Source: Bacteroidales bacterium
GTDB taxonomy: Bacteria > Bacteroidota > Bacteroidia > Bacteroidales > VadinHA17
Length of the DNA stretch: 64,000 nt
NCBI GenBank assembly: GCA_003141895.1
Contig: PLNT01000018.1
Coordinates: 257,884-321,883 of the forward strand
Reading direction: 5' to 3'
In this document: in pieces, positions 10,241-63,299 of the stretch
Layout of the letters: each line of letters begins with the position of its first letter
Position numbering within the stretch: the stretch's first letter is position 1
Position numbers and translations under genes: made by a program
Notes under the pieces: model-generated
The model's input: the letters and a program-made list of their open reading frames with translations, nothing else
Told to the model about the DNA's origin: nothing
Databases searched by the model: none

Positions 10241-10388
10241 TTATGGTGTGATGGTGTTATGGTGTTATGGTGTTATGGCGTTATTGCGTTATTGCGTTAT
10301 TGCGTTATGGCGTTATTGCGTTTTCCGACCTAACAACATAACGTATTAACAACATAACGTTTTAGTGTTATGATGTTATGATGTTATA
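10241..10388. repeat. Octamer microsatellite block: 10 x TTATGGYG/TTATTGCG, followed by inverted AACATAACG units and (GTTATGAT)n
   Basis: Read directly from the sequence. 10241-10320 is ten consecutive 8-mers. 10331-10360 carries the complementary units. 10365-10388 carries further direct units. Confidence 0.95.
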
Positions 10389-11410: not shown

Positions 11411-11456
11411 AACGTTACGACGTTATGACGTTATTATGTTATGGCGTTATGACGTT
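11411..11456. repeat. Octamer microsatellite (GACGTTAT-type units)
   Basis: aacgttac gacgttat gacgttat tatgttat ggcgttat gacgtttt. It overlaps the last codons and stop of the HEPN gene. Confidence 0.9.
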
Positions 11457-12269: not shown

Positions 12270-12326
12270 CTAATGACATAACTAATAACAACATTACGTT
12301 TTAATGTTATGACGTTATGACGTTTT
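12270..12326. repeat. Octamer repeat block (inverted CATAAC units, then ATGTTATGACGTTATGACG)
   Basis: Read directly from the sequence. Same unit family as 10241-10388. Confidence 0.85.
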
Positions 12327-12878: not shown

Positions 12879-12910
12879 GCTGTTATGGCGTTATGGCGTT
12901 ATGATGTTTC
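12879..12910. repeat. Octamer repeat block (GGCGTTAT units)
   Basis: gctgttat ggcgttat ggcgttat gatgtttc, immediately upstream of the wHTH gene start. Confidence 0.85.
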
Positions 12911-13229: not shown

Positions 13230-13277
13230 CCGTTATGGTGTTATGGTGTTATGACCTTATGACGTTATGGTGTTTCA
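13230..13277. repeat. Octamer repeat block (GTGTTATG/ACGTTATG units) overlapping the fcl copy 2 stop codon
   Basis: ccgttatg gtgttatg gtgttatg accttatg acgttatg gtgtttca. Confidence 0.9.
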
Positions 13278-14426
13278 GTCTTTCGAATAATTTCTATAAA
13301 CTATTTCAATACCCTTATTCAAATCAATCTTTTCTTTCCAGCCCAGTTTATTAATTTTTGATACATCGAGCAATTTGCGATAAGTGCCATCAGGTTTTGA
13401 GTTATCCCACTTTAACTCACCTTTAAAACCAACAGTGTCTTTGATCAATAAAGCTAAATTCTTAATTGTCAGATCTTTTCCTGTCCCAATATTGATGTGA
13501 GTGTTTTTAATATCTGTACCGGACTTATGGCTGATGACTGTTTGCTCAGGGCTCAGGGCACAGGGCTCAGGGCGAAGAGCCTTAAGATCATTAAAGTCAA
13601 CTTCATTCATAACAAAAACACAAGCTTCAGCAAGATCATCGACGTATAAAAACTCACGATAAGGATTGCCTGAACCCCATAAGCTGATTGTTACTATTTG
13701 CTGGGTGCTGGGTGCTGGGTTTGTGGAAATTCCGTACTTCAGCAGTTTATCCATTATTTCAGAATCTGTAAAAGTATCATTCACGCCCTCAACGGGGTAT
13801 TTTTTGAAATCCTGGCGGATAGATTCCCAATCATTATTCTCAAGACATTTCCCAAGATGCATTTTTCTGATCAGTGCCGGAAGAACATGAGATGTTTCAA
13901 GATTATAATTATCATTAGGGCCATAAAGATTGGTCGGCATTACAGAGACATAATTTGTTCCATATTGAATGTTGTAGGATTCGCACATTTTAATGCCGGC
14001 AATTTTTGCAATTGCATAAGGTTCATTTGTATATTCTAATTCTCCTGTTAAAAGATATTCTTCTTTTACAGGTTGTGGACAATTCCCCGGATAGATGCAT
14101 GAACTGCCAAGAAATAACAACTTTTTTACTCCGTGCTTATAACTTTGATGTATAATGTTATTCTGAATCATCAGGTTCTCATAAATAAACTGAGCACGGT
14201 AGGTATTGTTTGATAAAATACCCCCCACCTTAGCGGCAGCAAGAAAAACATATTCAGGTTTTTCTTTTTCAAAGAACTCTCCCACTATACTCTGATTAGT
14301 AAGATCAAAAGGCGGATAGGGAGAATAAACCTGATTTGTATATCCTTTTTCGATCAGATTCCGGCTGATAGCGCTACCTACCATTCCTTTGTGGCCTGAT
14401 ATATATATCTTCGAGGTTTTTTCCAT
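13275..14426 (-). CDS. fcl: GDP-L-fucose synthase, copy 2 (the copy sitting in the gmd-fcl operon position)
   Basis: 383 aa and nearly identical to copy 1 over most of its length. It differs by a 7-codon (3 heptamer) indel in the repeat tract, by scattered substitutions, and at the C-terminal end. Confidence 0.9.
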   Translation of the reverse strand: MEKTSKIYISGHKGMVGSAISRNLIEKGYTNQVYSPYPPFDLTNQSIVGEFFEKEKPEYVFLAAAKVGGILSNNTYRAQFIYENLMIQNNIIHQSYKHGVKKLLFLGSSCIYPGNCPQPVKEEYLLTGELEYTNEPYAIAKIAGIKMCESYNIQYGTNYVSVMPTNLYGPNDNYNLETSHVLPALIRKMHLGKCLENNDWESIRQDFKKYPVEGVNDTFTDSEIMDKLLKYGISTNPAPSTQQIVTISLWGSGNPYREFLYVDDLAEACVFVMNEVDFNDLKALRPEPCALSPEQTVISHKSGTDIKNTHINIGTGKDLTIKNLALLIKDTVGFKGELKWDNSKPDGTYRKLLDVSKINKLGWKEKIDLNKGIEIVYRNYSKD

Positions 14427-33690: not shown

Positions 33691-33764
33691 GGACCTGTAG
33701 CTTAATTGGATAGAGCATCTGGCTACGGACCAGAAGGTTGGGGGTTCGAGTCCCTTCAGGTTCA
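33691..33764 (+). tRNA. tRNA-Arg (anticodon ACG)
   Basis: Folded by hand. Acceptor GGACCTG/CAGGTTC, D arm GCTT...GAGC, anticodon stem TCTGG/CCAGA with loop CTACGGA (ACG), T arm with the TTCGAGT loop, discriminator A. Confidence 0.9.
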
Positions 33765-33775
33765 CTTTTATAAAA
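33745..33775 (+). repeat. attL (tRNA-Arg 3' end)
   Basis: ttcgagtcccttcaggttcacttttataaaa, matching 47273-47303 (ttcgagtcccttcaggttcactcttataaaa). Confidence 0.9.
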
Positions 33776-33813
33776 CGTAATTCAATTATTAATCAATGAG
33801 TTACGTTTTTTAT
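33772..33813 (+). terminator. Stem-loop plus T-run after tRNA-Arg (supplied by the inserted element)
   Basis: AAAACGTAA-20 nt-TTACGTTTT followed by TTATT. Confidence 0.5.
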
Positions 33814-33831
33814 TGCCCTGATTTTAACAAC

Positions 33832-33843
33832 ATTTCTACAACC
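33832..33843 (+). promoter_or_regulatory. ATTTCTACAACC motif (candidate integrase arm-type site, left end)
   Basis: The identical 12-mer recurs at 47129-47140, followed by ATTCTACAAC at 47141-47150, just inside the other end of the element. Confidence 0.35.
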
Positions 33844-33890
33844 CAGGTGAATACTCATTATATTCAGGATGATCTTCACTTTCCAAAACT

Positions 33891-34283
33891 CTATAGTAAA
33901 AAATTGACTTCGGAAAGCTCCTTTCCTATTTGATGAACACCTTGCAATATCCGTTTTGTCTGAATAATTGAAGGTTTTTTATTCCCTTTAATATATTGAG
34001 CTAATAAACTTTGGTTCATTCCTATTCGTTCAGAAAGCGCCTTTGCATTAATAACCTTGTAAAAGTCAAAGAAACTTTCAAGATCATAACTAAATTTTAT
34101 TTCATCAATCCTATAAATAAACCCTTTTACCTCAAAAGCAAGGTTTACAGCTTCTAAGATGTTAGATTTAAGTTCATCAAAGGTATTTCCATCGGTTGCT
34201 ATGAAATTATTTTCTACCGTTGTATTTGCGCTATATCCTATATCTTCTTTAACTACAGTTATGTTGATTTTAGTCTTTTTCAT
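33891..34283 (-). CDS. hicB: HicB-family antitoxin with a C-terminal XRE-type HTH
   Basis: The N-terminal HicB-like fold is (KINITVVKEDIGYSANTTVENNFIATDGNTFDELKSNILEAVNLAFE). The C-terminal HTH is (LSERIGMNQSLLAQYIKGNKKPS). It overlaps hicA by 4 nt. Confidence 0.75.
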   Translation of the reverse strand: MKKTKINITVVKEDIGYSANTTVENNFIATDGNTFDELKSNILEAVNLAFEVKGFIYRIDEIKFSYDLESFFDFYKVINAKALSERIGMNQSLLAQYIKGNKKPSIIQTKRILQGVHQIGKELSEVNFLL

Positions 34284-34477
34284 CTTTTACTCGTTTTAAT
34301 TTCTGCTTGCTTCAATATTGCTTTTAACAAACCTTTTTTAACTTCTTTCCCTGAATGGAACGGAACAGTAAGTTGTTTAGGATTCGTTGGATGCTGCATA
34401 ATTACATGACTGCCTTTTTGTCTGACTTCAATCCATCCATCCTTCTTTAACAACTTGAAAAGGTCATTATATTTCAT
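34280..34477 (-). CDS. hicA: HicA-family mRNA interferase toxin
   Basis: MKYNDLFKLLKKDGWIEVRQKGSHVIMQHPTNPKQLTVPFHSGKEVKKGLLKAILKQAEI is a near-consensus HicA (GSH motif). The start is taken at the ATG at 34477. Confidence 0.85.
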   Translation of the reverse strand: MKYNDLFKLLKKDGWIEVRQKGSHVIMQHPTNPKQLTVPFHSGKEVKKGLLKAILKQAEIKTSKR

Positions 34478-34569
34478 ATACACAAAGGTAATAAATATAT
34501 TACTTTCATGCAAATATTTTTTACTTTTAATTTGAATGTGCAAAAGTGAAATAGGTTTTTTTTGGTTGT

Positions 34570-34922
34570 CAGCTGCAGGATCCGCTCCGGGTCAACACTG
34601 TTTTACCCTGATGGTCGGTCCGGAATCAGTCAGAACCACGACCGGTAGTGATTAAAATTCAGGTAATATTAACCAGGTGTTTATGATCTGCAGCTGCAGG
34701 ATCCGCTCCTGGTCAACCCTTTTTGCCCTGACTAACCGGCCAGAAGTAGTCAGATCCATGGGTCCGTACGGGTTAATTCCGGAGTGATTTTAAGGTTTAC
34801 AGCTGGAGTATCCGCTCCGATCCGCTCCTGGTCAACCCTCTTTACCCTGATGAACCGGCCAGAAGTAGTCAGATCCATGGTCCGTCTGGGATAATTCCGG
34901 AGTGATTTTAAGGTTTACAGCT
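34570..34922. repeat. Three tandem GC-rich repeat units (121, 109 and 123 bp); candidate structured RNA or protein-binding array
   Basis: Units start at 34570, 34691 and 34800, each with CAGCTG(C/G)AGGATCCGCTCC...GGTCAAC...CCCTGA...GTCAGA.... Units 2 and 3 are very similar. Unit 1 diverges in its 3' half. No ORF is present. GC content is visibly much higher than in the flanks. Confidence 0.9.
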
Positions 34923-34932
34923 ACTGACGGAA

Positions 34933-35862
34933 TTAATTCGGTAATTGAAACATAAGAGAAGTTTCAAGGCCGATACTTTCTATTAATAAATTACCTAATG
35001 AGATAATATCCATTCCAATCAAAAGGTCAGCCCTTTCATCTTTATCCTGTATCCCCACCAGGACAGGGATTGCACGCTCATCCCAAAGATGAATATTAAT
35101 CAAACATGTATTAATTTTATGAATTGAATCCACATTCCCCATCAATAATGAACCTACTATTTTAACATTTAATTTTGATGCAAGCGATCGGGAAATCATA
35201 CTCATCCCGGCCCCGCTGTCCCAAGCGGCTAGAACCTTTAATGTTTTAGTGTTTGGTTGTGGAGTAGAAACTTTGCACTGATAACGAAGACTATAAACAA
35301 TTTTACCATATTCTAACCGGATTGAGTTTTCATTCTGATCTCTGTATATTTTATCTGGTTCCTCTATTTTAAACATTGCTGCCTTTTCGTTATCAATAAT
35401 TCGTTCCTTCTCCGGCATGTCAAACCGCACAATAGTCTTAGAATTTACGTTATTAACAAATAAATTCCCTCTGCAAATAATATCCATCCCAATTATAACA
35501 GGAGAGTCCGAGAGCTCCTTTTCCATCAGCTCAACTGGTACAGTGATACCGTTTGGTAAATAAATAAAAGCCTCGTAGCAATTTTTATCATACATTTTTC
35601 CGCTATCGTAATGCTTTATCGTTCGGTGACTTTTCAACCCCATTTTATTAACTAAATCTTTTGATATTAAACATCCACCACAGCCTGTATCCCACAGGGT
35701 TTCTATAGTTAACATTTTTTTCTTACCGTCTTTATCCTCTCTTTCCATTGGAAAAATAATACAATTGAGAACAATTTCTTTTACAACTTCATTATACGAA
35801 GCAGTAAAAGACTGTACTGAATTAAATACACTTCGTGTCAAAGAATACTTTTTGTTTTGCAT
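34933..35862 (-). CDS. Single-chain protein with two retropepsin-like (clan AA) aspartic protease domains
   Basis: Domain 1: LWDTGCGGCLIS ... VIIGMDIICRGNLFV. Domain 2: AWDSGAGMSMIS ... LLIGMDIISLGNLLI. This gives two D(T/S)G catalytic motifs, each with the downstream IGMDI helix motif. Confidence 0.7.
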   Translation of the reverse strand: MQNKKYSLTRSVFNSVQSFTASYNEVVKEIVLNCIIFPMEREDKDGKKKMLTIETLWDTGCGGCLISKDLVNKMGLKSHRTIKHYDSGKMYDKNCYEAFIYLPNGITVPVELMEKELSDSPVIIGMDIICRGNLFVNNVNSKTIVRFDMPEKERIIDNEKAAMFKIEEPDKIYRDQNENSIRLEYGKIVYSLRYQCKVSTPQPNTKTLKVLAAWDSGAGMSMISRSLASKLNVKIVGSLLMGNVDSIHKINTCLINIHLWDERAIPVLVGIQDKDERADLLIGMDIISLGNLLIESIGLETSLMFQLPN

Positions 35863-35966
35863 GATGAATTTATTTTAAAGTTTAATATACCTCTTTCAAA
35901 ATTTGTTCCCCGGAAAAAAGTCAATTTCAATTTAGCTTTTACCTTAAAGTAGGTAATTCCTTAATA

Positions 35967-36141
35967 CCCCCCCTTGAAATCTTCCTTTCAAAAAATACCC
36001 TCCAGAAAAAAACCGATTTTGAATTCAAGCAACCCTTAATCCCTGGATCCTGACTAACCCCCCCCCTCCAGTTTTGACAGAGGCACCGATTCTGAAGGCT
36101 AACGGTCGCAGAGACAAAAGCCCTAGAGAATTCCCCCCCCC
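35967..36141. repeat. GC-rich leader with three long homopolymeric C (minus-strand G) tracts upstream of the retropepsin gene
   Basis: C7 at 35967-35973, C9 at 36058-36066 and C9 at 36133-36141, plus local hairpins (for example CCCC-gta-GGGG on the minus strand). Confidence 0.9.
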
Positions 36142-36357
36142 TACGGGGTACCGGCGGCAGACTATTGTAATCATCAGATAATAAATATATTCCAAAATAA
36201 ATTCCGTATAAATTATCAGTTCACTAATAAATGAACAATATTGATTATCAATCATATATAAAGACTGTTTTATAGATGAGAAGTATTATAACGTTTCTTC
36301 GCATCTATATTATACCCATGCTGATATTTTAATGAATTTTGTATGTTTCTTTTGAAA

Positions 36358-37269
36358 TTAGAACGCTTTATCAATGTTGTGAACTGCAATGCCTTTCTTC
36401 TTTGTCTCTTCCTTAATGTACTTCAAATAGATCATAGTGGTTTTTATGTCCCGATGAGCCATCAATGCACTTACATTGTAGATATCAGTACCTTCATTAA
36501 TTGCTGTTACAGCACAGGTATGCCTAAGACTGTGAGCAGTAATCAGAGGGTCATCTATCCCTATATCTCTGAGTCTCTCTTTAACTATTCTTGACACTGT
36601 CTTAGGATCCATTCTATTTCCATCAGCTGCATAACCATGATTAATAAAGGCAGGTTCTTTATCCGGGTGTTCTCTTTGGCTGAAGTATTCTTGTATAGGA
36701 TTGATCACTTTTAATGTCATACCCTGAGTATCATCTTTACCCTCTCTTCCTTTCCTCTGGATCCGGACCAGCCATTGATCTTCTTCGATTACAAAGTCAC
36801 CAATGTCAAGCCGGCAAACTTCACAACATCGGAGTCCCATCCTTACCATAAGATTAATCATTGCATAGTCACGTTTCCCAATCATCGAGTTTCTGTTAAT
36901 CGAGCATAGGAGATCAGTAACCTGGGAGGGTCTTAACGGTTTTTTCTTAAATATCTGATCCTTTACTGAAGCTTTGAGCTTTTTTGCAACGTTTGGATAA
37001 AGCCCAACATCATCCAGGTAAGAAAAAAACTGCCTTATACAAACGGCATATGAGACAACAGTTGCCTCAGATCTTCCAGTCTTTTTTAGCCAGCTGATAT
37101 AACAGATTATGTTTGCAAATGTGACTGAATGATGATCTATTTCATTAGTTGTCAGCCATTTTATAAATATTGCAAGGTTAACTCTGTACTTTTTTATAGT
37201 GCCAGGCTTCCCCTGATGATCAGCCAGAAACTCTTCAATGAGTTGATTTATATGTTTGCCAGCTATCAC
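36358..37269 (-). CDS. XerC/XerD-like tyrosine recombinase (second recombinase of the element)
   Basis: The catalytic pattern is MGLRCCEV (R), HSLRHTCA (HxxR) and HRDIKTTMIYLKY (H...Y). The N-terminal SAM-like core-binding domain is present. Confidence 0.85.
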   Translation of the reverse strand: MIAGKHINQLIEEFLADHQGKPGTIKKYRVNLAIFIKWLTTNEIDHHSVTFANIICYISWLKKTGRSEATVVSYAVCIRQFFSYLDDVGLYPNVAKKLKASVKDQIFKKKPLRPSQVTDLLCSINRNSMIGKRDYAMINLMVRMGLRCCEVCRLDIGDFVIEEDQWLVRIQRKGREGKDDTQGMTLKVINPIQEYFSQREHPDKEPAFINHGYAADGNRMDPKTVSRIVKERLRDIGIDDPLITAHSLRHTCAVTAINEGTDIYNVSALMAHRDIKTTMIYLKYIKEETKKKGIAVHNIDKAF

Positions 37270-37583
37270 TTCTTATTTCTTTTGAAAAGATATACGTCAA
37301 TGTCATCACAATAGCGCTGGGCTTCAGACACAAGTGCGTCTGTTGTTTCAGTTGAAAGCTTATTATGAGTTTCTTCATCATAGGCTGCAGATATTGATCG
37401 GAATCCTTCTTTTGCCCTGTTTATTTGATGTTTTGCTGATGTTCTGATTCTGGAAGTCTCTTTGTTCATATCAATTGAATAGTAAAACTGTTCCAACTCA
37501 GCAAGATTATCATTCAAAATTTTCATCTGAGTGGTAAGCTTTTCATTTTTAAGAATAAAATCATTGATAATCATTGTTTTCAC
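37266..37583 (-). CDS. Hypothetical helical protein, paralog of the next gene
   Basis: 105 aa. The N-terminus (MKT)MIINDFILKNEKL matches MIINDFILQDKKF of 37592..37948. Confidence 0.5.
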   Translation of the reverse strand: MKTMIINDFILKNEKLTTQMKILNDNLAELEQFYYSIDMNKETSRIRTSAKHQINRAKEGFRSISAAYDEETHNKLSTETTDALVSEAQRYCDDIDVYLFKRNKK

Positions 37584-37591
37584 ATTTAAGG

Positions 37592-37948
37592 TTAATCATA
37601 ATTCGGAATTGTTTTAAACATAGGAGGAGCAATAACGATTCTTTTAAAAATATCTTCAAGTTCTTTACACTTGGCTGTTATTTCAGGAATAATGATTTCA
37701 GTAATTTTATCCTGGTTTCTGTCTATATGTTCTTTCTGGTTATATGCTGTTTCAAGTCTGTGGAAAGATATTTGCTCAAGTTTAATTACTCTTCCTAACC
37801 AAAACACCAGATCATAGTTAGTACTTTCTAATAATTTGCCTGACAACACTAATGTTCTGAAACTTTCGAGCCTGTCAATTTCTTCGGCGTAAGCCTTCAT
37901 TGATGCTGAGAACTTCTTGTCCTGTAAAATAAAATCATTGATAATCAT
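37592..37948 (-). CDS. Hypothetical helical protein, paralog of the previous gene
   Basis: 118 aa, with a shared N-terminal motif and a shared ...AY(D/N)... central motif. Start and stop overlaps with the neighbouring genes suggest translational coupling. Confidence 0.5.
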   Translation of the reverse strand: MIINDFILQDKKFSASMKAYAEEIDRLESFRTLVLSGKLLESTNYDLVFWLGRVIKLEQISFHRLETAYNQKEHIDRNQDKITEIIIPEITAKCKELEDIFKRIVIAPPMFKTIPNYD

Positions 37949-38196
37949 TGTTTCTCGTTTTTAAGGTTTATAATATTTCTGAATTGAATTAATCTTTGAA
38001 AATAAGGCCGGTACCTTCTATTTTTGCTTTGAAATTTTGAAATACTCAAATGAGTCTTTATGAACAAGGGGATATCCGTAATAGTGCTACATTGATCTAG
38101 TTTTATTGGTTCAGATGAAAACTTTATATTTTCGAAGAATCTCTCTAATTCTTCAATTTCATATTCAATGATAATATTTTCAAAGTCTACTGTCAT
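37945..38196 (-). CDS. Hypothetical protein (83 aa)
   Basis: The ORF has 4-nt overlaps with both neighbours, which supports coding. I recognised no motif. Confidence 0.45.
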   Translation of the reverse strand: MTVDFENIIIEYEIEELERFFENIKFSSEPIKLDQCSTITDIPLFIKTHLSISKFQSKNRRYRPYFQRLIQFRNIINLKNEKQ

Positions 38197-38879
38197 TTCC
38201 GCTTATCATTGCCAGGGAAAAGAATTATGTTAAACATCTGCATCATACGTGAAGCAACAAATTCTCCATATTCTTTTCTGATTTGTTTAGGCAGCATATT
38301 TGTTGAAACATGAGTTAATTTAAAAGCCTCAGTATAAATATAATATCTTCGCTGAATGAACTCAGCAATGATATTTGTGTTGTTTCCAAAGTGTTTTATT
38401 GTACTTGCAGACTGACCCAGATCATCCAGAAGTAAATGTCCGGGACCATAACCAGATCCAGTCCCATAAGATCCTCCAAAATAGGTCATATAAAAACCAA
38501 TGTTAGATAAATATTCAAACCCTTTTTGTGCAAACCCGGTAACAAGGTCATTCACGTTAATAACTGAAAAATTGTTTTCTCCTGGCGACTTGACAGCTCT
38601 GTTAAGAATGTTGAAAATCTTAAAGTAGATTGTTTTACCAACACCAACATTCCCATAAACATATAACCCTTTTCGAAGGTCATAAATACTGGTTTTGTCA
38701 CCGGCAAAATATTTTATTGGGTTTAAGTAGATCTCTCTGTTGTCAACATCCATTTCAAATCCCGGGCAAATTGTCAGTGCAATTTTATTAAATGCTTCAA
38801 GGCGCATCTGAAAGTCATAATCCGTATGAAGTAAATACTCCCCCGGTTTTATACTACTTAAGAAATCAGCTTCAGTCAT
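38193..38879 (-). CDS. DnaC/IstB-like AAA+ ATPase (helicase-loader-like)
   Basis: Walker A YVYGNVGVGKTIYF and Walker B HLLLDDLGQ. It lies directly downstream of the replication-organizer-like gene. Confidence 0.65.
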   Translation of the reverse strand: MTEADFLSSIKPGEYLLHTDYDFQMRLEAFNKIALTICPGFEMDVDNREIYLNPIKYFAGDKTSIYDLRKGLYVYGNVGVGKTIYFKIFNILNRAVKSPGENNFSVINVNDLVTGFAQKGFEYLSNIGFYMTYFGGSYGTGSGYGPGHLLLDDLGQSASTIKHFGNNTNIIAEFIQRRYYIYTEAFKLTHVSTNMLPKQIRKEYGEFVASRMMQMFNIILFPGNDKRK

Positions 38880-38882
38880 CTT

Positions 38883-39752
38883 TTAAAAAGTTGTTTCAGG
38901 TATTTTATAATCTGAAGATTTATTGTCCCATAATTTATTCACCCGTTCAGGAACCCGGTCATTATTAATGTTTGTTCTATGGTTTCCATTGATTCTGTTC
39001 TTAAAAACTGTGAAATACAAAAGCCCTTCTTTATTTTTTCTTCTGAGCTTTAATACTGACAAAAAATTGGATCGCCAGAATTCGTCTTTTCTTGTACTTT
39101 CAATCACGCTGATAATTTCATCTGAGGAGAATCCATCTATCCGATTAAGTTTATCCAACGTTTCGCACCACTCATTTTTTTGAGCTTCGGATTTTGGACG
39201 GCAACTTTCATCGAAAAAAGCAACAACTTCATTATACAAAACTTCTATCTGGGATTTATTTTGATTTTCGGAATTTTCAACCTTTTTACCTATACCATTA
39301 CCATTACCATTACCATTACCATTACCATAGGGGCTCCTTAGCCCCTCCTTAGCCCCTTCAATAAATTCAATAATATCATTGATTTCAAACTTATGTTTAT
39401 ACACTTCAAAGCGCTTAAATATTCCCCGGTGAGCATTATTTTTTTCCGGATTTAAAGGCAAGTTTTTCTGATGCTTTAAAAAAGTGCGAATATAAATACA
39501 ATCATTTGAATTAGAACAGATTAAGCCCCTCCTTAGCCCCTTCAAAGCCCCTTCAATTATTTTCTTATCTAAGCCGATATCTGTACTCCATCTTTTAATG
39601 TTCAATTCAATAAATCCCGCTATGTCACAATTCTCATATAGGTATATAAAGAGAAACTTTTCATTTGGTTTCAAATTAGAGAACCAGGAATCACTCCATT
39701 TCTCAGTATTAGTATATCGGTAAGCCATCAGGTTATTTTTTTTTGTTTTCAA
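38883..39752 (-). CDS. Putative replication initiator / replisome organizer (winged-helix N-terminus), with an internal (Gly-Asn)n linker
   Basis: The N-terminus WSDSWFSNLKPNEKFLFIYLYENCDIAGFIELN resembles phage replisome-organizer/DnaD-like N-domains. The central GNGNGNGNGNG is encoded by (CCATTA)6 at 39295-39330. Confidence 0.5.
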   Translation of the reverse strand: MKTKKNNLMAYRYTNTEKWSDSWFSNLKPNEKFLFIYLYENCDIAGFIELNIKRWSTDIGLDKKIIEGALKGLRRGLICSNSNDCIYIRTFLKHQKNLPLNPEKNNAHRGIFKRFEVYKHKFEINDIIEFIEGAKEGLRSPYGNGNGNGNGNGIGKKVENSENQNKSQIEVLYNEVVAFFDESCRPKSEAQKNEWCETLDKLNRIDGFSSDEIISVIESTRKDEFWRSNFLSVLKLRRKNKEGLLYFTVFKNRINGNHRTNINNDRVPERVNKLWDNKSSDYKIPETTF

Positions 39753-39776
39753 CTAAAACAGTTTGAATAAAAAAAA

Positions 39777-39956
39777 TTACTTCTTTAGGAGATCATGAAA
39801 CTTTTTGTTAATCCGGATAAAAAAGAATCCATCAATCTCCACCAAGTCTACCTGATCATCTTCGCCAAGTTTGCGGACCCATGCCGCACTTTTATTGTTC
39901 AGTTTAGCAAACTTCGAGATTCTCATCAAAGATTTTGTATCAACCAATTCATTCAT
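39777..39956 (-). CDS. Small HTH (excisionase/AlpA-like) protein, 59 aa (below the ORF-track cutoff)
   Basis: My own translation is MNELVDTKSLMRISKFAKLNNKSAAWVRKLGEDDQVDLVEIDGFFFIRINKKFHDLLKK. It shows the HTH followed by the 'V.IDG..FI' strand typical of HTH_17-type proteins. Confidence 0.45.
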   Translation of the reverse strand: MNELVDTKSLMRISKFAKLNNKSAAWVRKLGEDDQVDLVEIDGFFFIRINKKFHDLLKK

Positions 39957-39982
39957 ATTTTTTATTTTTAAATTAATTATAC

Positions 39983-40020
39983 TTTTAAAAAGGCTACCCA
40001 GGGGGACCCCTCTCCCCTGG
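39983..40020 (-). terminator. Stem-loop ending the structural-gene block of the element
   Basis: On the minus strand: CCAGGGG-agaggggtc-CCCCTGG, then gtagcc and TTTTT. Confidence 0.4.
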
Positions 40021-40200
40021 CAGCCATCCTAACTGAGATGGGGATACAGTCAGGAGTAGGCATTTTAGACAATAGGACCTTTAAACATTTTGTAAGTATT
40101 CATGCGTAAAATAATTCAACTCAGTTTTAAAAAAGGTACCGCATCGGTAAAATTCAGAAAACCTTTAGCGGTCCCTGGGCAAACGTTTAATAATCAAACT

Positions 40201-40332
40201 TCAAAGAATATCAAAATTGGTAATAATTGGCTTTTCTCCACGCTCTTTGGCACGGGCATTAATCCTAACCGCTGCGATTAATCTTTCAGTCCTTTCGTAT
40301 GCATCAATCTCCCTTTGCTTACTTTCCAGCAT
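40201..40332 (-). CDS. Small coiled-coil ORF (43 aa from the internal ATG), in frame with the prohead protease across its TAG stop
   Basis: MLESKQREIDAYERTERLIAAVRINARAKERGEKPIITNFDIL. The whole 63-codon stretch 40201-40392 is open in the protease frame. Confidence 0.35.
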   Translation of the reverse strand: MLESKQREIDAYERTERLIAAVRINARAKERGEKPIITNFDIL

Positions 40333-40392
40333 GTTTGAGATCCTTTTAATTTCTGAAGGCGTTAGATTACCTGATGCATCCTTCTCCCAAAG

Positions 40393-41088
40393 CTATTTTC
40401 TAATGTTTTGCGGGCTTCTATCTCTTATCCCTGCATCTTTACCGTCCAAAAGCGTTAACACGTTATAAACCTCCATATTTTCAATCTGTGATAGACTGAA
40501 ATCCATTCCCAGTTCAGAAAATGCATATAATAAACCAGATTGAGCCTGAGAACGCATTGACCCCATCCCTCGTTTACCACTAGAAGCATTTGAAGGGATA
40601 TTAACTACAGACCATTCAAGTAATTCCTGACCGGCAAAGCGATAAGTCTCATTTCCCCCCCCCTGGGCTTCGTCTCCTTTTCCCCAGGAGCCCGCCCCTA
40701 TTTCAAGAAAGCCAACTGATACAGCTCTCAGAGATCCCAGCATTAATTTGCGAAAGATTTTGTCTGCCAAAGGATTTATATCTGCAGTCTCAAAATAAGC
40801 ATCAGCACTTAATACTGTTCGTCCGGAAATTGTTTCTATCCCGATCCGCTTAGTCGATCCTATCACATCATCAGGATTTGAAGAAGTGAATGAGTTCCCA
40901 TAAAGATTATGCATATAACCAATCACAGGATTTTTACGGTAATTATCGAGGATCCAGTTAGCCTGATTGAGTACAGTATGATGTCTATCCCGGTCAGGAG
41001 TACTGACTATAAATGGAATTATGCGAGATTGCTTTGCATCTGTCGGAATATCTCGAACCTGTCCATATGTTATAACTTTATTCTTCAT
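40393..41088 (-). CDS. HK97-family prohead serine protease (S78/U35)
   Basis: RIIPFIVSTPDRDRHHTVLNQANWILDNYRKNPVIGYMHN...DVIGST follows the conserved N-terminal pattern of caudoviral prohead proteases (xSTxxxDRxxxxI...W.L..Y.KNPV....H). Confidence 0.7.
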   Translation of the reverse strand: MKNKVITYGQVRDIPTDAKQSRIIPFIVSTPDRDRHHTVLNQANWILDNYRKNPVIGYMHNLYGNSFTSSNPDDVIGSTKRIGIETISGRTVLSADAYFETADINPLADKIFRKLMLGSLRAVSVGFLEIGAGSWGKGDEAQGGGNETYRFAGQELLEWSVVNIPSNASSGKRGMGSMRSQAQSGLLYAFSELGMDFSLSQIENMEVYNVLTLLDGKDAGIRDRSPQNIRK

Positions 41089-41119
41089 CTCTTTAGATTT
41101 AAACTTATAATTGTAGTTT

Positions 41120-42706
41120 TCAGATAATTGGTGATCCGTCCTGATAACAAAGGCAATTGGTTGTTAATAATGCGGCATTCCCAAAGTCAGTCCCTTCAGT
41201 AATCAGAAGTTCTACATCGGGCAAAGTTTCGGGTTCAGTGCTATTTATAAACTCAGCAATAACTTCTGAAGGATTCGGGGTAGCAAGGTTTACTCTCAGG
41301 CCCTGATAAGCAACAAAATATGATTCCCCAGTGATAAAGGGATGATGTTCAGAAGGAGGTTCTAGTTTGATTTCCAGAAGACCACTTCCAGGTAATGGAT
41401 CTGTTATTATCTGAACGTTTGAAAACTCTGGCAGATACGAGCTGCTCGCTTGTAGGTTTAATTTAATATAGGCAGGAACAGCAAGCCATCCTTTAAGGAT
41501 TTTGCCATTAGAAAGAGTAATAACATCATTAGTAAGATACCACACGGTCGATCCTACAGTAATAGTCACTGTAATTTTGAATTCAAGATTATAAGCATTT
41601 GGAGTACCGTCTGCATTCCTATAGATAGTACCTACGTTGATTGCAAAAGAAAAAGCCTGCCCGGTTACTGATTCAACTTCAAGAGATTGGCTCAATGAAA
41701 TAGGAATAGGAAGTCCTGTAAATGGAATTAAAGCGTATGGGAGCCCGAAATTGTCAAATGCTTGTTGTACAGTACCACTCCCGCTTTGTGTCCAGTTTTC
41801 AAAATGCGGATCATAAATCATCTGATCACTTAATAGACTAAATTGAGCAAAGTCAGAGTTCAAAAAAAGGTTGTCTTTTAATTTGATAGTCTTTTTAACT
41901 TTGACTTGCTTACCACCTGGCACCAGAGACATCTGTAAGCTTCCCACGGGAGAAACTTCAATGCCGGGACCAGGATAACCCAGATTTAATACTGCAGGAG
42001 CTGATTCGGTACCTTGATAGGCCCCGCCTGAAGAATAAAGCATACGGCTGCTTTTAACGTCAGATGAACGTGTTATTCCCCATCGACCGAGCCGTTGTGT
42101 AATCTCAGCATTAAATATTTTGAGAATATTTTCTATTACTTCATAGCAAGTAAGTCCTGAAAAAGTTTCGGCAGAAATATATGTTTGTTCCAGGGGTGAC
42201 CGGCTATGATCGTGCAAAGTAGCAAATAGGTTAATAGCAATAGAATATCCTAGCACCAACTCCGTTTTACTTATGCAATAAATTATTATCTGAAGCAAGC
42301 TCATGAACCCGGACAAAGGAAAGGATTCATTTTTAAGCAGTCCTAATCCGTCGGTAGCTATAAAGGTCACAGTATTTGGGACAGGCGTATAAGGTGTTGA
42401 ATATTGTTGTGGTAGATTATAACCGACCCACATAAGGACATCAGAAGGACCATAAAGCTCAACTTTTATAGCTTTAGTTTTGTTAGTGTAAAATTCGAGA
42501 AACTCAAAATCAACCTCCTCAATAATTGAATATTCAAAGGATGTCCCTCTAATATAATCAGCTTTATCTTTTCTTAATTTAAAAGGTGATATCGGAACAT
42601 TGCGATCTATTTGATTACCGACATAACCATCAAAATAAACTTTTGCTTTGTAAAGATTTCCTTTTTTGCTTCTACACAAGAGCTCATATTTCAGACCGTA
42701 AGCCAT
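41120..42706 (-). CDS. Phage structural-like protein (tail/baseplate-like N-terminus), function unknown
   Basis: 528 aa. The N-terminus MAYGLKYELLCRSKKGNLYKAKVYFDGYVGNQIDRNVPISPFKLRK...VELYGPSDVLMWVGYNLPQQY resembles a pattern I associate with tail proteins of Bacteroidota phages. This is not verified. Confidence 0.35.
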   Translation of the reverse strand: MAYGLKYELLCRSKKGNLYKAKVYFDGYVGNQIDRNVPISPFKLRKDKADYIRGTSFEYSIIEEVDFEFLEFYTNKTKAIKVELYGPSDVLMWVGYNLPQQYSTPYTPVPNTVTFIATDGLGLLKNESFPLSGFMSLLQIIIYCISKTELVLGYSIAINLFATLHDHSRSPLEQTYISAETFSGLTCYEVIENILKIFNAEITQRLGRWGITRSSDVKSSRMLYSSGGAYQGTESAPAVLNLGYPGPGIEVSPVGSLQMSLVPGGKQVKVKKTIKLKDNLFLNSDFAQFSLLSDQMIYDPHFENWTQSGSGTVQQAFDNFGLPYALIPFTGLPIPISLSQSLEVESVTGQAFSFAINVGTIYRNADGTPNAYNLEFKITVTITVGSTVWYLTNDVITLSNGKILKGWLAVPAYIKLNLQASSSYLPEFSNVQIITDPLPGSGLLEIKLEPPSEHHPFITGESYFVAYQGLRVNLATPNPSEVIAEFINSTEPETLPDVELLITEGTDFGNAALLTTNCLCYQDGSPII

Positions 42707-42763
42707 AGAATTATATATTAAAACTTTTATTTTTTTATATCAGTTTATTATCAACAGGTTAGG

Positions 42764-43504
42764 TTAATCAGTAAGGTTACAGGGTTTTAATATTTTGTCA
42801 GTTATAGGATCTTTTTGAAATTTTAATTCAGATAATATCTGAGATCGTTCCTTTGAACTATATGAAGGTGCAAGATCAAAGTATCCACCCTCCAAAAGTT
42901 TTCTTAATTGCTTTTTTACAATCTTGCCCGTTTGTCCAGGAGAATAAGCATATTCAGAATGCGAGTTCTTGCAGATAACTGAAGCCCATTCCTTCTCGTC
43001 ATAAACCAGAGGCGGAACAAGGGGCTCAACATAATCATCTGCCATTAATTCAATTAATCCAACATCAAGTAGTCGCTCAGCTTCAGCTTCTGATATTCTG
43101 ATTATAGACCCTTCCTTTTCAGAACGGTTCCCCCCAGGCTTTAATATTCTCGCATTTACCTTATCTTCCTCTAAAACTTCCTTAACCGGGGGCAGTTCTT
43201 CGAAAATAAGTTTAACATAACCTTGTGACACTAAGCAATTATCTCGTATCTGTTCAAGTTGAAGAGATACAATTTTTCCTTTTTCATAAGTTAATTTGGG
43301 ATGCTTTTGCATAAATTCAACTTTGCAATATGACTTTCCTCTCGAGATAATCCGGCCATATCCTAGTTCTAGCAGCTGATTATAATCAATGAAGTGTTGA
43401 TTCAGCATTGCTACATGCCCTTCATTCCAAATAAACTCCGGATGTTTTTTTAGCCAGTAAAAGTAAATATCTCCTTTGTACTCATTTTTTTCACTTGTTT
43501 TCAT
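42764..43504 (-). CDS. Hypothetical protein built from about four ~40-aa repeat modules
   Basis: The recurring module is (K/Q)KHP..(Y/W)..G.(I/V)..(L/M)...(L..GY): LKKHPEFIWNEGHVAML...LELGYGRI; MQKHPKLTYEKGKIVSL...VSQGYVKL; ...SIIRISEAEAERLLDVGLIEL; NSHSEYAYSPGQTGKIV...LEGGYFDL. Confidence 0.5.
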   Translation of the reverse strand: MKTSEKNEYKGDIYFYWLKKHPEFIWNEGHVAMLNQHFIDYNQLLELGYGRIISRGKSYCKVEFMQKHPKLTYEKGKIVSLQLEQIRDNCLVSQGYVKLIFEELPPVKEVLEEDKVNARILKPGGNRSEKEGSIIRISEAEAERLLDVGLIELMADDYVEPLVPPLVYDEKEWASVICKNSHSEYAYSPGQTGKIVKKQLRKLLEGGYFDLAPSYSSKERSQILSELKFQKDPITDKILKPCNLTD

Positions 43505-43534
43505 TTATGATTGTTTTACAGTTAGTTGAATTCT

Positions 43535-43855
43535 TTAATTTTCATTTTCTATCAGTTCGACATAACAGAGGTTTACCAGATCTTCAACGTCCTCTGAGCG
43601 AATTTTACCAATATCGCCAACCGAATATGCATAACGATGGTGCGGTTTTATAAAAATTACTTCAGTATAGTTTTGGGGAATAGGTTTAACCTTGTCCTCT
43701 TCCTTGGTGGGGCTGGCGTATCCCAATTCAATAAGTTTTGAAGCGTATTTTCTTTCCATCTGGCAGAAATCGCCTGGGGATTTCCCGGATTGAGGATGTT
43801 TCAGGAGAAATGTAATTTCCATTAATTCTAAATTGTTCTCAGTTGAGTTTTTCAT
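43535..43855 (-). CDS. Hypothetical protein with two copies of the same ~40-aa module
   Basis: LLKHPQSGKSPGDFCQM...LIELGYASP and IKPHHRYAYSVGDIGKI...LCYVELI. Confidence 0.5.
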   Translation of the reverse strand: MKNSTENNLELMEITFLLKHPQSGKSPGDFCQMERKYASKLIELGYASPTKEEDKVKPIPQNYTEVIFIKPHHRYAYSVGDIGKIRSEDVEDLVNLCYVELIENEN

Positions 43856-43878
43856 TGTAAAAATATTAACTGTGTTAA

Positions 43879-44184
43879 TTATGCCTGGCCCAATATTTTT
43901 TCCAGATCAGATCTTCTGTATCTCTTTTGACCTCCGATCCGTAGCGGTTTTGTTAGCTTCTTTTTGTCATAGTTCCAAAGCGTGACTAATGAAATACCGA
44001 GGGCTTTCGCAAAAGCCTGAGGTTTCATGTATTCCTCGACATCTGGTTGTTGGTTCATCTTCATTCTTTCAATGGCTCTCTCTGCAACATGTTCACCAAA
44101 AGCGATCAGATCACTTCCGGAGACTTCCAATCTTAAGCCTTTGGCTAGCTCCGGGTTATCATTTAGAATATTTAAAAGATCCAT
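43879..44184 (-). CDS. HTH DNA-binding protein (excisionase/MerR-like HTH_17)
   Basis: KPQAFAKALGISLVTLWNYDKKKLTKPLRIGGQKRYRRSDLEKIL. Confidence 0.6.
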   Translation of the reverse strand: MDLLNILNDNPELAKGLRLEVSGSDLIAFGEHVAERAIERMKMNQQPDVEEYMKPQAFAKALGISLVTLWNYDKKKLTKPLRIGGQKRYRRSDLEKILGQA

Positions 44185-44220
44185 TACCGTTTATATTGAT
44201 TCAAAACAAAATTACAGCAA

Positions 44221-44248
44221 TAAAAAACCCCGAAACATAGTAACGGGG
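44221..44248 (-). terminator. Rho-independent terminator inside the element
   Basis: On the minus strand: CCCCG-ttactatgttt-CGGGG followed by TTTTTT. Confidence 0.55.
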
Positions 44249-44272
44249 TACGTAACCGGTTACGTAACCGGT
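44249..44272. promoter_or_regulatory. Tandem 12-mer TACGTAACCGGT x2 containing the perfect palindrome GTAACCGGTTAC (candidate operator)
   Basis: Read directly from the sequence. It lies between the 274-aa gene and the HTH gene. Confidence 0.4.
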
Positions 44273-44297
44273 CACAATCAGTTTTTTAACTCTTTGT

Positions 44298-45122
44298 CTA
44301 CAATCCAGTAGACGCGTCCATTTCTTTGGTAGCCTGATTTATAGCTTTGCTGACATCACAAGAAGTAAATGTTTTTAAAAGACCGATAGATTCTATCATT
44401 TTATTTACATTTTTTATACTCTTTCTAGTATTCTTATTCTTTAATTCGGGCCATCTCTTCCTGATCACGTTGAAGGAGTAACCAGAAAACTCGGCGATTT
44501 TATTATAAATGCATGTTTGACTACCCATCTCTAATTCTTTGAAGGGATAACAATAATTCTGTTTACAGTAGATATAGGCCATAACGACACTTGCAACGGA
44601 GTAGCCCTGGTCTTTAAATAAACTCTCTGAAGATTCTGAAGATGTATTTTGATTCGCTTTGGAATTCTCTGCAGGTTGTAGCCAAACCCCATCCCGATGG
44701 TTTTTTAAATATGCCTTCACCCCCATTCTTTTTAAAAATTTTTCCCGCTTAAGCATGTGATCAGTAATAAGGTCACAAATTCTCTTTACTTCAGAATAAT
44801 TATATAAACCTGAGTTATAATTTTTGGCCAAAAAATCAAATTTCTTTTTGTATTCAGCTCTTTCTAACGGCAGGTTCTTAAGCTCTTCTGGTGACAAGGG
44901 TAAGGTTTTATACCCTTTGTAATCGGGTGTCGACGTTATCAATCGATCAATTTCCTCCTTTAGTGTCCTAAGAAGCTTATCTGAGAAATCATAAACATAT
45001 ATTACTTCACTATATTTTAGAGCTGTAAGATGCAAAGGTAGTTTTTCGATTTCTTGGTAAAGATCCCTTACCTGGTCTTCAGTTAGTAATTTTGTCATAA
45101 TGTTCGTTAATAAATTTTTCAT
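44298..45122 (-). CDS. Hypothetical protein (274 aa)
   Basis: Long ORF co-directional with the element genes. I recognised no motif. Confidence 0.5.
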   Translation of the reverse strand: MKNLLTNIMTKLLTEDQVRDLYQEIEKLPLHLTALKYSEVIYVYDFSDKLLRTLKEEIDRLITSTPDYKGYKTLPLSPEELKNLPLERAEYKKKFDFLAKNYNSGLYNYSEVKRICDLITDHMLKREKFLKRMGVKAYLKNHRDGVWLQPAENSKANQNTSSESSESLFKDQGYSVASVVMAYIYCKQNYCYPFKELEMGSQTCIYNKIAEFSGYSFNVIRKRWPELKNKNTRKSIKNVNKMIESIGLLKTFTSCDVSKAINQATKEMDASTGL

Positions 45123-45162
45123 GTTTAACCTGAATCATTAGTACTTCCCGGACTGCCATTCC

Positions 45163-45696
45163 TTATCCAACTTCTTGAAGTTCTTCAACAGGATAGCTCT
45201 TAAGCTGATAAGTTTCCGATCTGATATCATCAAAGGTGTCGGCAATCTTTTTTATATAAAACAACTGTTCGACTAAATCCGGATTATTTTCAAAGATTCC
45301 ATGTTCACCTTTATCAAATGATGAAAGAGAAGCTTCAACAATATCATTGTGTAATGTTCTGAGTGTTTCAATGAGTACGCCTATTCCCCCACATTCAATT
45401 ATATCTTTCAGCGGAGAGAGATCATAATCAATAAGCCTCCGTTTTGTAATTGGGGCACCAGGTTCATCTTGAATAAGTTCTTCACAAGTCAATACAGCAT
45501 TTTGTTGTTCTGTATGGTTCGCTTTAAGTGTTAAATTTTCTTCCAACAGTTTTTGTACATCAATACCCATATTCAAAAGCGTTTTGAAAGAGTCTGTCCA
45601 GGGACCTTGAGCACCAAACAAAATTTGTCTTTTAATTTTTTCAGATTGATCCTCTTGTTTCTGGATCTCTTGGTTGTTGTTAGTTACATTTTTCAT
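45163..45696 (-). CDS. Hypothetical protein (177 aa)
   Basis: ORF directly downstream of the integrase. I recognised no motif. Confidence 0.5.
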   Translation of the reverse strand: MKNVTNNNQEIQKQEDQSEKIKRQILFGAQGPWTDSFKTLLNMGIDVQKLLEENLTLKANHTEQQNAVLTCEELIQDEPGAPITKRRLIDYDLSPLKDIIECGGIGVLIETLRTLHNDIVEASLSSFDKGEHGIFENNPDLVEQLFYIKKIADTFDDIRSETYQLKSYPVEELQEVG

Positions 45697-45732
45697 CTTA
45701 AGTGGGGTTTAAATTATTACGTATGAAGAAAG

Positions 45733-47073
45733 TTATGATACAATTTTTAAATTTGAATCTTTATAATAAGGATGATTCGCTAACTTTAGGGCTGTCTCTT
45801 CTGAAGAAATTCTAATATACTCGAGGAGCTGTTTATCGCTCGAATGACCTGATATTTTTCTTATGTCAGTTAATGAAATACCAGCTTTATACATATTTGT
45901 ACAAGCTGTTCTCCTTCCGGTATGGCATGTAATAATTTCCCACTTTTTTGCGGATCTTGGATACTTCTTTCCAAACTTAACCCCCTCCCAATTTATTTCC
46001 TCCGTTATACCACAAGAAAAGGCTACTGTTTTAATGTATTTGTTTACGTACTGTTCTGGTATCTGAGGTAATTTATTTCCATATTTCTTCCAGATCTCCT
46101 CAAATCTGGGAGTAAGTGGAATGATTACCGGCGTACCTGTTTTAGTCTGGCTTATGTCAATAAAACGCTTACCTTCAATATTGCGAATATTAATATCTAT
46201 TTTTTTGTAGTCGGATATTCTTAAACATGTTTCACAAAGAACAATAAAGGCATCACGGGCTAATTCCTCCCTCGGAGACAGAGAGAGATCCTTTGTGTAA
46301 ATTTGATCTAACTCGTCCCGGGTAAGGTAAATTGAATGGGTCTTTTCAGAAATACCGTGAAATGATTCATATTTAAATTCTTGGTTTGTATGTAATTTGT
46401 CAACTTCCAGGGATTTTCTCATTATTAACTTTAAACTCTTTATAAATCTACCTATCGTGTTTAAAGCATAACCCTCATTAGTCAAGAAATTAACAAACGA
46501 ATTATAAAAATCAATATTGATATTCTCAAAATCTAACTTCCTTAGTGGTCTTAATGGTTTTTCTTTTCCTCCGTGCTTCTCTTTGTCTTTATGCCATGCA
46601 ATTCGCTTTTCCGAGTAAATACCCTGATACTCTCCAAAGATGCGTTTAAAACCCTCTAAGATGCGTATGGTGCCAGGTGCAAGATTAATTGATGACTTAT
46701 TCTTTCTATCCCCTGCCTTTGCCTCTTTAATGAAATTATCAATGTATTGATTCAGGTTCTTTGCCTTAACATTCTTTTTATTGTGGAACTTATCAATAAC
46801 ATCTGTCAACCATTCTTTCGAATAACCGTCATGAAAATTCTTAACCTCTGTCTCAATATAGTCTTTTAGGTCATGCAGTTTTTTGATTAGCTTATCATCA
46901 TCTTCTGTTGTGATCCTTTGTTTTATGGTCTGTGTTTTATTACTCCATCTATCAGCATCAACTAAAAGTAGCGTTTTTACAATTATATCAACTTCTCTCC
47001 CGGCTGATAACCTTACATAAATGGGAGCCAGATCCCTCTTTTTTGCAGACACAAAATAATTAACAGTAGGCAT
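45733..47073 (-). CDS. Tyrosine-type site-specific integrase (Bacteroidota large integrase type)
   Basis: 446 aa. The catalytic pattern is CETCLRISD (R), CHTGRRTACT (HxxR) and ISGHSSDKQLLEYIRI (H...Y). There is a long N-terminal arm-binding/SAM-like region. The gene lies 200 bp from attR. Confidence 0.9.
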   Translation of the reverse strand: MPTVNYFVSAKKRDLAPIYVRLSAGREVDIIVKTLLLVDADRWSNKTQTIKQRITTEDDDKLIKKLHDLKDYIETEVKNFHDGYSKEWLTDVIDKFHNKKNVKAKNLNQYIDNFIKEAKAGDRKNKSSINLAPGTIRILEGFKRIFGEYQGIYSEKRIAWHKDKEKHGGKEKPLRPLRKLDFENINIDFYNSFVNFLTNEGYALNTIGRFIKSLKLIMRKSLEVDKLHTNQEFKYESFHGISEKTHSIYLTRDELDQIYTKDLSLSPREELARDAFIVLCETCLRISDYKKIDINIRNIEGKRFIDISQTKTGTPVIIPLTPRFEEIWKKYGNKLPQIPEQYVNKYIKTVAFSCGITEEINWEGVKFGKKYPRSAKKWEIITCHTGRRTACTNMYKAGISLTDIRKISGHSSDKQLLEYIRISSEETALKLANHPYYKDSNLKIVS

Positions 47074-47128
47074 ATTCTTAACTTTTATTAATTCGAATCC
47101 TTTCAGGACTCAACTAAACAAAGATAAT

Positions 47129-47150
47129 ATTTCTACAACCATTCTACAAC
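47129..47150 (+). promoter_or_regulatory. ATTTCTACAACC + ATTCTACAAC direct repeats (candidate integrase arm-type sites, right end)
   Basis: The same 12-mer occurs at 33832-33843. Confidence 0.35.
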
Positions 47151-47272
47151 ATAATTTAAATCTATTTTAATCCATGTTAATAAAATAATCTTACATGTAT
47201 AGCCCATCTATTGACTAGATGGGAGAATGATAATTTTTTATAATTAAATTGAATTAATATAAATAGGGTTGA

Positions 47273-47303
47273 TTCGAGTCCCTTCAGGTTCACTCTTATA
47301 AAA
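47273..47303 (+). repeat. attR (duplicated tRNA-Arg 3' fragment)
   Basis: ttcgagtcccttcaggttcactcttataaaa. No tRNA 5' half lies upstream, so this is a partial copy. Confidence 0.9.
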
Positions 47304-60093: not shown

Positions 60094-60319
60094 ATAAATC
60101 AGTTTTAATTTTCAGTTAATATTTAATAAAAATAATATAAACACAACATAAAAACAATGATTAAATAACGATGAACAATAATAATTTAAAATGTAACAAA
60201 AACTTAACAACATTGTTCTATTGATTACATATCAATGTATTTACTTTGTATAAACCTGAAATTGCTGATATTGAAATGTTATAACAGAGATTTCGAGCAC
60301 ATTTTTTAACTGCTTCAAA

Positions 60320-61309: not shown

Positions 61310-61339
61310 AGATTTCAGGTATTTACTACTTTTACATTT

Positions 61340-63260: not shown

Positions 63261-63299
63261 TTAGTAGTTTAATGAGTTTATAAATTATAATGACAGAAT

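Follow-up and report, generated by a model that had tools for sequence, protein, structure and literature searches.

A GC-rich tandem repeat of varying copy number marks mosaic junctions in the cargo region of phage-satellite-like elements from peat

Our data show that a short array of non-coding tandem repeats, located between a retropepsin-like gene and the toxin gene hicA in a 64-kb window of Bacteroidales DNA (i.e., the whole stretch that we analyzed), is unstable and marks mosaic junctions. The best reading of the array, to which we assign a probability of roughly 0.4, is a DNA-level minisatellite that lies in the cargo hot spot of a satellite and acts as a recombination hot spot for cargo exchange. 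The context is the firmer gain, in that the element hosting the array appears to be a cos-mimicking satellite of HNH / P27-terS phages.

The initial annotation had described three contiguous repeats of about 120 bp, with hicA on one side and a retropepsin gene on the other, and both the positions (Tandem Repeats Finder and a MAFFT alignment) and the neighbours were borne out (Table 1). The array (34570-34922, minus strand) consists of head-to-tail units that start at 34570, 34691, and 34800, with a mean column identity of 77% across the three. Tandem Repeats Finder reported 34700-34922 with a period of 119, 1.9 copies, and 92% matches, and it also called the 10-nt internal duplication that had been noted in unit 3; this duplication is translated as well in P0224, a gene call on a second, unrelated contig. 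As the annotation had also stated, the alignment shows units 2 and 3 to be nearly identical, with the divergence of unit 1 confined to its far half. Three occurrences of the motif GGATCCGCTCCTGGTCAAC were counted in the 64-kb window, all of them in the array, and none is expected from shuffled sequences; the rest of the window contains no further unit copies. The reported island of ~50% GC in flanks of ~30% GC was measured at 0.43-0.53 against 0.26-0.35, and the array was rightly called non-coding, its longest ORF being 42 aa with stops in every frame.

The assembly did not create the array, which is covered end to end at single-copy depth by unitigs of four independent peat metagenome runs. 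One unitig (34590-34717) displayed ~2-fold the depth of its neighbours in four of four runs (49.5 vs 24-27, 28 vs 11-18, 18 vs 9-10, and 11.6 vs 4.5-5). Moreover, it can be entered from a second unitig, and past 34724 one contig runs on into unit-1-like sequence. Given this doubled depth, second path, and continuation, the source array probably holds four units, the fourth being a unit-1-like copy that was collapsed in the assembly. The unitig depth of the array was 1-2x that of the flanks, and therefore the repeat is not dispersed.

Table 1. Features of the window, and repeat units in the related elements
Feature or element	Position	Strand	Description
tRNA-Arg(ACG)	33691-33765	+	ARAGORN, Rfam
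attL	33745-33768	+	tRNA-Arg 3' end; direct repeat of attR
hicB-like	33891-34283	-	protein partner of hicA; cargo toxin-antitoxin pair 33891-34480
hicA	34280-34480	-	PF07927, 1e-25
Unit 1 (type Y)	34570-34690	-	121 bp; homologous to L140 units B and C
Unit 2 (type X)	34691-34799	-	109 bp
Unit 3 (type X)	34800-34922	-	123 bp, with 10-nt duplication at 34810-34828
Two-domain retropepsin-like aspartic protease gene	34933-35862	-	array follows this gene in the subclade carrying it
Conserved cos-type element flanked by G-runs	35990-36170	-	upstream edge of the cargo region
Xer-like tyrosine recombinase, 303 aa	36358-37269	-	not an integron integrase
Integrase, 446 aa	45733-47073	-	tyrosine recombinase adjoining attR
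attR	47273-47296		repeat of tRNA-Arg 3' end; delimits the element with attL
L140			4 full units (205, 118, 119, and 205 bp) + 1 partial
L161/L162			2 units + 1 partial
L010			2 units + 1 partial
L142			300-aa ORF flanked by pieces of units
L144			1 unit
L012			stub only (last 35 nt)
L146			degenerate trace of a unit
L011, L013, L151-L157 (including phage L154)			no units

In gene orientation (the minus strand of the window), units span CTG(CAG) to GATCCTGCAG; unit 1, for example, reads CTGCAG...GATCCTGCAG. Each unit is made up of a variable 5' part and a terminal block of ~50 bp, to which conservation is limited (34570-34621 in unit 1; 34691-34742 in unit 2, with the core CAGCTG(CAG) at 34691-34699). 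The block is composed of GATCC-ATCAGGGCAAAGAGGGTTGACCAGGAG-NN-GATC followed by the palindromic core CTGCAG/CTG(CAG), so that the junction between two units forms a perfect 12-bp palindrome, CTGCAG/CTGCAG. The variable 5' parts fall into three subtypes that recur in differing orders among the elements, and some units are chimeric (unit 3 and the extra unit-1-like copy). Short sub-repeats are also found inside the units (GGCTGATCCA twice and ACCTG three times). When the junctions were checked for cruciforms, three of them displayed a weak outer stem of 7-9 bp in differing registers (z only -1.1 to -1.8), a junction-centred hairpin was missing from some of the junctions examined, and cruciforms were set aside.

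The array is carried by a 13.5-kb element integrated at tRNA-Arg (33745-47296), all of whose genes lie on the minus strand. Read along the plus strand, the order is hicB, hicA, the array, the retropepsin-like gene, a conserved non-coding element, and the gene for the Xer-like recombinase, followed by DUF6965, DnaC-like, and DnaD/Rep-like genes, a head-protein/protease-like gene, an excisionase-like HTH gene, and the gene for the 446-aa integrase; the element thus bears two tyrosine recombinases (446 and 303 aa). No terminase match was obtained among the scanned ORFs of the element, about eight of which had no family match at all. Given a cos signal and no terminase match, the element is best described, from its sequence, as a cos-type phage-satellite-like element, with an integrase and att repeats, its own replication genes, a helper-type packaging signal, and no terminase detected. 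The array occupies the cargo region between the cos signal and the tRNA attachment end. Most relatives are integrated at tRNA-Asp, and two (L155 and L156) at other tRNA genes.

The non-coding element upstream of the array comprises ~100 conserved nt (TAGGGGGGGT.AAATCTCT ... GCGACCGTAAGCC ... TGTCAAAAYTGGAGGGGGGGTAT), and a cos-like element of this kind was found in all related elements; in the window it lies 1.1 kb from the array. In phage L154, it is located directly upstream of terS-terL-portal-capsid (L154:7615-7710). A pattern derived from it matched 86 IMG/VR contigs (L163-L248), compared with an estimated 7 or so expected by chance, and in those contigs the cos-like element has an HNH endonuclease gene on one side and a P27-family terS on the other, an arrangement that is the HK97-type HNH-cos-terS module. 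The element has no Rfam family. We consider it probably to be a cos packaging signal that terminase-less satellites have copied.

Several other features of the element were observed along the way. A dyad (TAGATGAGAAG-13 nt-CTTCGCATCTA, 36273-36307) follows the stop codon of the Xer-like recombinase gene at a distance of 50-55 nt and is conserved in L013, L142, L144, L146, and L151; we take it as a candidate core site for that enzyme, perhaps as part of a Cre/loxP-like module beside cos. Most satellites examined have a retropepsin-like gene downstream of cos, which in the majority of these follows cos directly; the genes come in one-domain, two-domain, and SEC-C-tailed forms (e.g., L146:2459-2875 and L144:9108-9620), and their link to defence consists of a single weak PADLOC match (PDC-M08B, 4e-5). 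In the window alone among the elements, a sequence just downstream of the cos element (36030-36060, GTTAGTCAGG...AAGGGTTG) matches the start of the unit-2 block through a 10-mer and an 8-mer; this could represent the degenerate remnant of a unit on the upstream side of the retropepsin gene, or a chance match.

To assess the occurrence of the repeat, we reached relatives through homologues of the retropepsin and the recombinase, which led to syntenic contigs, and added L140, L161, and L162 by an exact-pattern scan of JGI metagenomes and a pseudo-peptide search; units were then counted using nhmmer with unit and block profiles. The initial annotation had suggested searching for homologous repeats in related elements, and nhmmer indeed found them in L140, L161/L162, L010, L142, and L144. 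It had also suggested BLAST searches against phage sequences, which returned no unit matches in phage and plasmid collections. Likewise, scanning viral contigs with two unit patterns gave only chance matches, in high-GC DNA, scanning them with the retropepsin and recombinase proteins gave no matches, and a pattern scan of genome contigs produced at least 119 chance matches, with no real extra copy among the matches listed. Among the matches listed, homologous units are therefore confined to a few related peat elements. Every copy has the orientation of the genes and is located between cos and the attachment end, usually directly after the retropepsin gene. The number of full units varies between 0 and 4, the latter with an additional partial one, even where the flanks are 94-99% identical; L140 and L161, for instance, share flanks that are 94% (left) and 96% (right) identical, yet contain 4 and 2 full units, respectively.

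Several breakpoints of cargo and of homology coincide exactly with the core. L010 and L011 are 98.8% identical over 5315 bp, and this homology ends exactly at CAGCT, past which L011 runs straight into the attachment arm, whereas L010 carries units and a toxin-antitoxin pair. In the window, the retropepsin stop codon is followed by a degenerate core (GTAGCTG, 34917-34923), after which the array begins, and the array ends, with unit 1 last, exactly at a CAGCTG core (34570-34575) beside the hicA promoter. The L012 stub terminates at CAGCTG, the right edge of the cargo ORF module in L142 is CAGTTG, and a 50-nt insert within a unit of L161 has the edges CAGCTG and CAGCTC. In addition, L010 and L140 are 96% identical to the right of the array, and blastn detects no match between their retropepsin genes to its left. 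Collectively, the differences in copy number, the breakpoints at the core, and the mosaic flanks show that the repeat is unstable and marks mosaic junctions. The signal of breakpoints at the core may be partly definitional, since any array made up of complete units should terminate at the edge of a unit.

In the minisatellite reading that we favour, the array would act as DNA and not as RNA. The repeated block would supply homology for recombination, with the 12-bp palindrome as a possible break-prone point, and unequal crossing-over as well as exchange between related elements at the array would expand or contract it and swap the downstream cargo (toxin-antitoxin modules and other small genes). 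The repeat is confined to one family of elements, keeps one orientation, varies in copy number, has breakpoints at its core, is not dispersed, and bears no RNA, coding, or transposon signature, as this reading would have it; we infer the recombination mechanism itself, as well as the absence of a further dedicated function, from about eight arrays that are related by descent. The units also fit the definition of a variable-number tandem repeat, being head-to-tail and non-coding and differing in number between close relatives. They resemble bacterial and phage minisatellites (VNTR loci) in having head-to-tail non-coding units of ~100-200 bp, varying number, chimeric units, and a single locus, but differ from them in a sharply conserved 50-bp end with a perfect 12-bp palindrome, in the coincidence of the array with cargo-exchange breakpoints, and in GC and GATC contents above those of the surroundings. 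As in P4-like and other satellite hot spots, variable cargo lies between cos and the attachment end and consists of toxin-antitoxin genes and small genes of no assigned function; what differs here is a host from peat, apparently Bacteroidota-like judging by context, and a presumed helper belonging to the HNH / P27-terS cos type. To our knowledge, no satellite cargo hot spot structured by a tandem repeat family has been described.

Two aspects of the repeat could also point away from recombination alone. Unit blocks are 87-90% identical between elements whose retropepsin proteins are only 55-59% identical, a pattern that speaks for the recombination reading, yet such conservation above that of the neighbouring genes, together with the constant orientation, could reflect selection rather than recent exchange. 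Furthermore, the high GC content and the excess of GATC and palindromes hint at a sequence-specific function that the recombination hot spot leaves unused. One such function would be a methylation-sensitive protein-binding platform, in which a stack of GATC, CCWGG, and short palindromes is bound by a regulator, nucleoid, or packaging protein that governs how the cargo is expressed or the satellite packaged. Possible analogues are the pac site of phage P1, which is rich in GATC, and phase switches that depend on Dam. Compared with the remainder of the window (4.1 per kb overall), GATC is 4-9 times denser in the arrays, with 6 sites in the 356 bp of the window array, 20 sites in 729 bp of L140, and 6 sites in 160 bp of L142. 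In addition, 6-bp palindromes are 2.5-3 times more frequent than in shuffles, and CCGG, GATC, and CCAGG are enriched over the diverged units. Because of these enrichments and the short sub-repeats, a binding or methylation-sensitive role stays as a rival, to which a GC-rich array of constant orientation in AT-rich DNA would also be suited. However, the unit types do not share their GATC positions, the presence of units is not tracked by any candidate binding protein (the gene sets of L010 and L011 being the same), the array is dispensable in close relatives, and the real packaging signal appears to be the cos element 1.1 kb upstream. On balance, we regard a binding platform as unlikely.

A second rival, which we rate slightly lower, is a site-specific cassette platform akin to integrons or pdif modules, in which the block and the CTGCAG/CAGCTG core form a recombination site, the unit is the end of a module, and the Xer-like recombinase of the element or a host tyrosine recombinase moves the small modules. 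Every unit-bearing element has an Xer-like recombinase gene at a distance of 1.4 kb, and the breakpoints at the core would be expected, including the apparent 'empty site' CAGCTC in L011 where L010 has units and a toxin-antitoxin pair; the 300-aa ORF between unit pieces in L142 also agrees with a cassette. Toxin-antitoxin genes are typical cargo of integron cassettes and pdif modules, and such genes are found here as well. The array further resembles integron attC arrays and Acinetobacter pdif modules in its same-orientation sites near a tyrosine recombinase gene and in the gain and loss of cargo at those sites, with a near-identical relative that has an 'empty' site. On the other hand, the recombinase is not an integron integrase (TIGR02249, 62.8 bits vs a cut-off of 265), it is equally present in unit-less relatives and in the complete phage L154, and it has its own dyad, which is unlike the unit core. 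The units show neither attC-like R''/R' symmetry nor a stable imperfect palindrome, nor a 28-bp Xer site, no unit follows hicAB, and most 'cassettes' would be ORF-less stretches of 110-205 bp. More speculative still is the idea that the units are attC-like sites of an undescribed, non-integron gene-capture system on cos-type satellites, in which a non-IntI tyrosine recombinase acting at the CAGCTG core would shuffle toxin-antitoxin or defence modules just downstream of the packaging signal; we hold both the system and such shuffling to be improbable.

The least probable rival is an array of small non-coding RNAs, among them a type III-like antitoxin or a decoy for HicA, in which transcripts of the gene strand would be processed to unit length. 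Such a reading is invited by the GC-rich island, as these are often RNA genes in AT-rich genomes, by the position of the array between two genes on the same strand, and by the hairpins that the initial annotation had pointed out (CTGACTA-12 nt-TAGTCAG, a 7-bp stem, in unit 2 and CTGAT-12 nt-ATCAG in unit 1, with one apparently compensatory pair). These two hairpins exist, but the corresponding region of unit 3 is chimeric (CTGATGA...TAGTCAG), which breaks the stem and undoes the compensatory pair; the L140 units break it too, and relatives lack this hairpin. Folding of each unit on both strands, as had been proposed, was no better than for shuffles (z -0.28 to +0.84), RNAalifold on eight diverged units gave no consensus fold (-2.8 kcal/mol), and Rfam returned no match at the gathering threshold and only chance-level ones at a permissive threshold (E 0.4-4). 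For the unit-2 hairpin together with a long-range stem, 71% of cells were paired compared with 70% in shuffles (155 of 500 shuffles were as good), with no excess of covariation over shuffles. We found no per-unit promoter or terminator pattern, and three metatranscriptomes from the same study yielded no contigs on the element, a weak test at its low abundance. Thus, of the two roles that had been proposed for the GC island, structured RNA did not hold up, whereas a dense protein-binding site is still a candidate.

The analogy with type III antitoxins fared no better. In the window alone, the array shares with ToxI, CptI, and TenpI an arrangement in which non-coding tandem repeats directly precede a toxin gene and have its orientation. 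Unlike those systems, it has units of 109-205 nt and no signal of RNA structure, and HicA already has a protein antitoxin, HicB. The hicAB pair downstream of the array is not kept in relatives: it is ordered hicB-hicA, inverted relative to the window, in L140 and L161, the hic genes are absent from L142 and L144 despite the presence of units, and L011 lacks both units and pair at 98.8% identity to L010. A ToxIN-like array was therefore rejected, the adjacent genes being HicA and a HicB-like ORF in place of a ToxN/AbiQ/CptN/TenpN-type endoribonuclease, the units not being 34-45 nt long, and the arrangement of repeat and toxin varying in relatives.

We also considered several other identities for the array. 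The claim that it is not a CRISPR array was upheld: in place of 23-47-nt repeats and unique spacers of similar size, there is a conserved block of ~50 bp with intervening parts of 60-155 bp that recur as three types, and no cas genes were found among the annotated ORFs. A coding repeat was rejected; the frame ...RVDQERILQLQ, which served solely as the handle of the pseudo-peptide search, recurs, yet stops and a 1-nt indel interrupt it, and third positions show no concentration of substitutions. A pile-up of tRNA or tmRNA fragments at att was discarded, as ARAGORN and Rfam find only tRNA-Arg, to which the units are dissimilar. The units are not MITEs, having no terminal inverted repeats (end-to-end alignments resemble shuffles beyond CTGCAG(GATC)), and no dispersed MITE-like copies were found in the window or elsewhere among the matches listed, at single-copy depth. 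An integron was rejected on the TIGR02249 score and on PRK15417 (35 bits vs a cut-off of 435), the best matches of the recombinase being generic Xer models, all below their cut-offs. As for attC sites, the unit-2 boxes AATTAAC/GTTGACC each miss the R''(RYYYAAC)/R'(GTTRRRY) consensus, pair at 4 of 7 positions, and, as read from the sequence, are not kept in units 1 and 3. A replication origin was likewise set aside, since iteron-like repeats sit elsewhere (39286-39562), by the Rep-like gene.

Those repeats (TACCAT six times, and CTCCTTAGCCC and AAGCCCCTCCA units) lie inside or beside the Rep/DnaD-like gene (38883-39752) and are probably the replication iterons of the element. Further repeats were seen in other parts of the window. 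Arrays of 8-nt units (GTTATGGC / ACGTTATG, up to 10 copies) at 10241-10387, 11412-11456, 12306-12324, 12882-12903, and 13232-13274 surround a run of small and mid-sized minus-strand ORFs, and arrays of 7-nt units (GCTCAGG and GGTGCTG) occur at 9336-9533 and 13544-13720, ~4.2 kb apart. Lastly, a two-gene block of ~1.65 kb is duplicated in tandem at 60317-61969 and 62271-63929, with 70-74% identity between the copies.

At present, the repeat is an uncommon oddity limited to one lineage. Should it turn out to be a genuine site-specific platform or a binding array that is sensitive to methylation, it would represent a novel mode of organising satellite cargo. If the array is instead a recombination hot spot, as we favour, environmental satellites would swap accessory genes by means of a private repeat rather than a dedicated integron, and the repeat would serve as a marker for cargo turnover in peat metagenomes.
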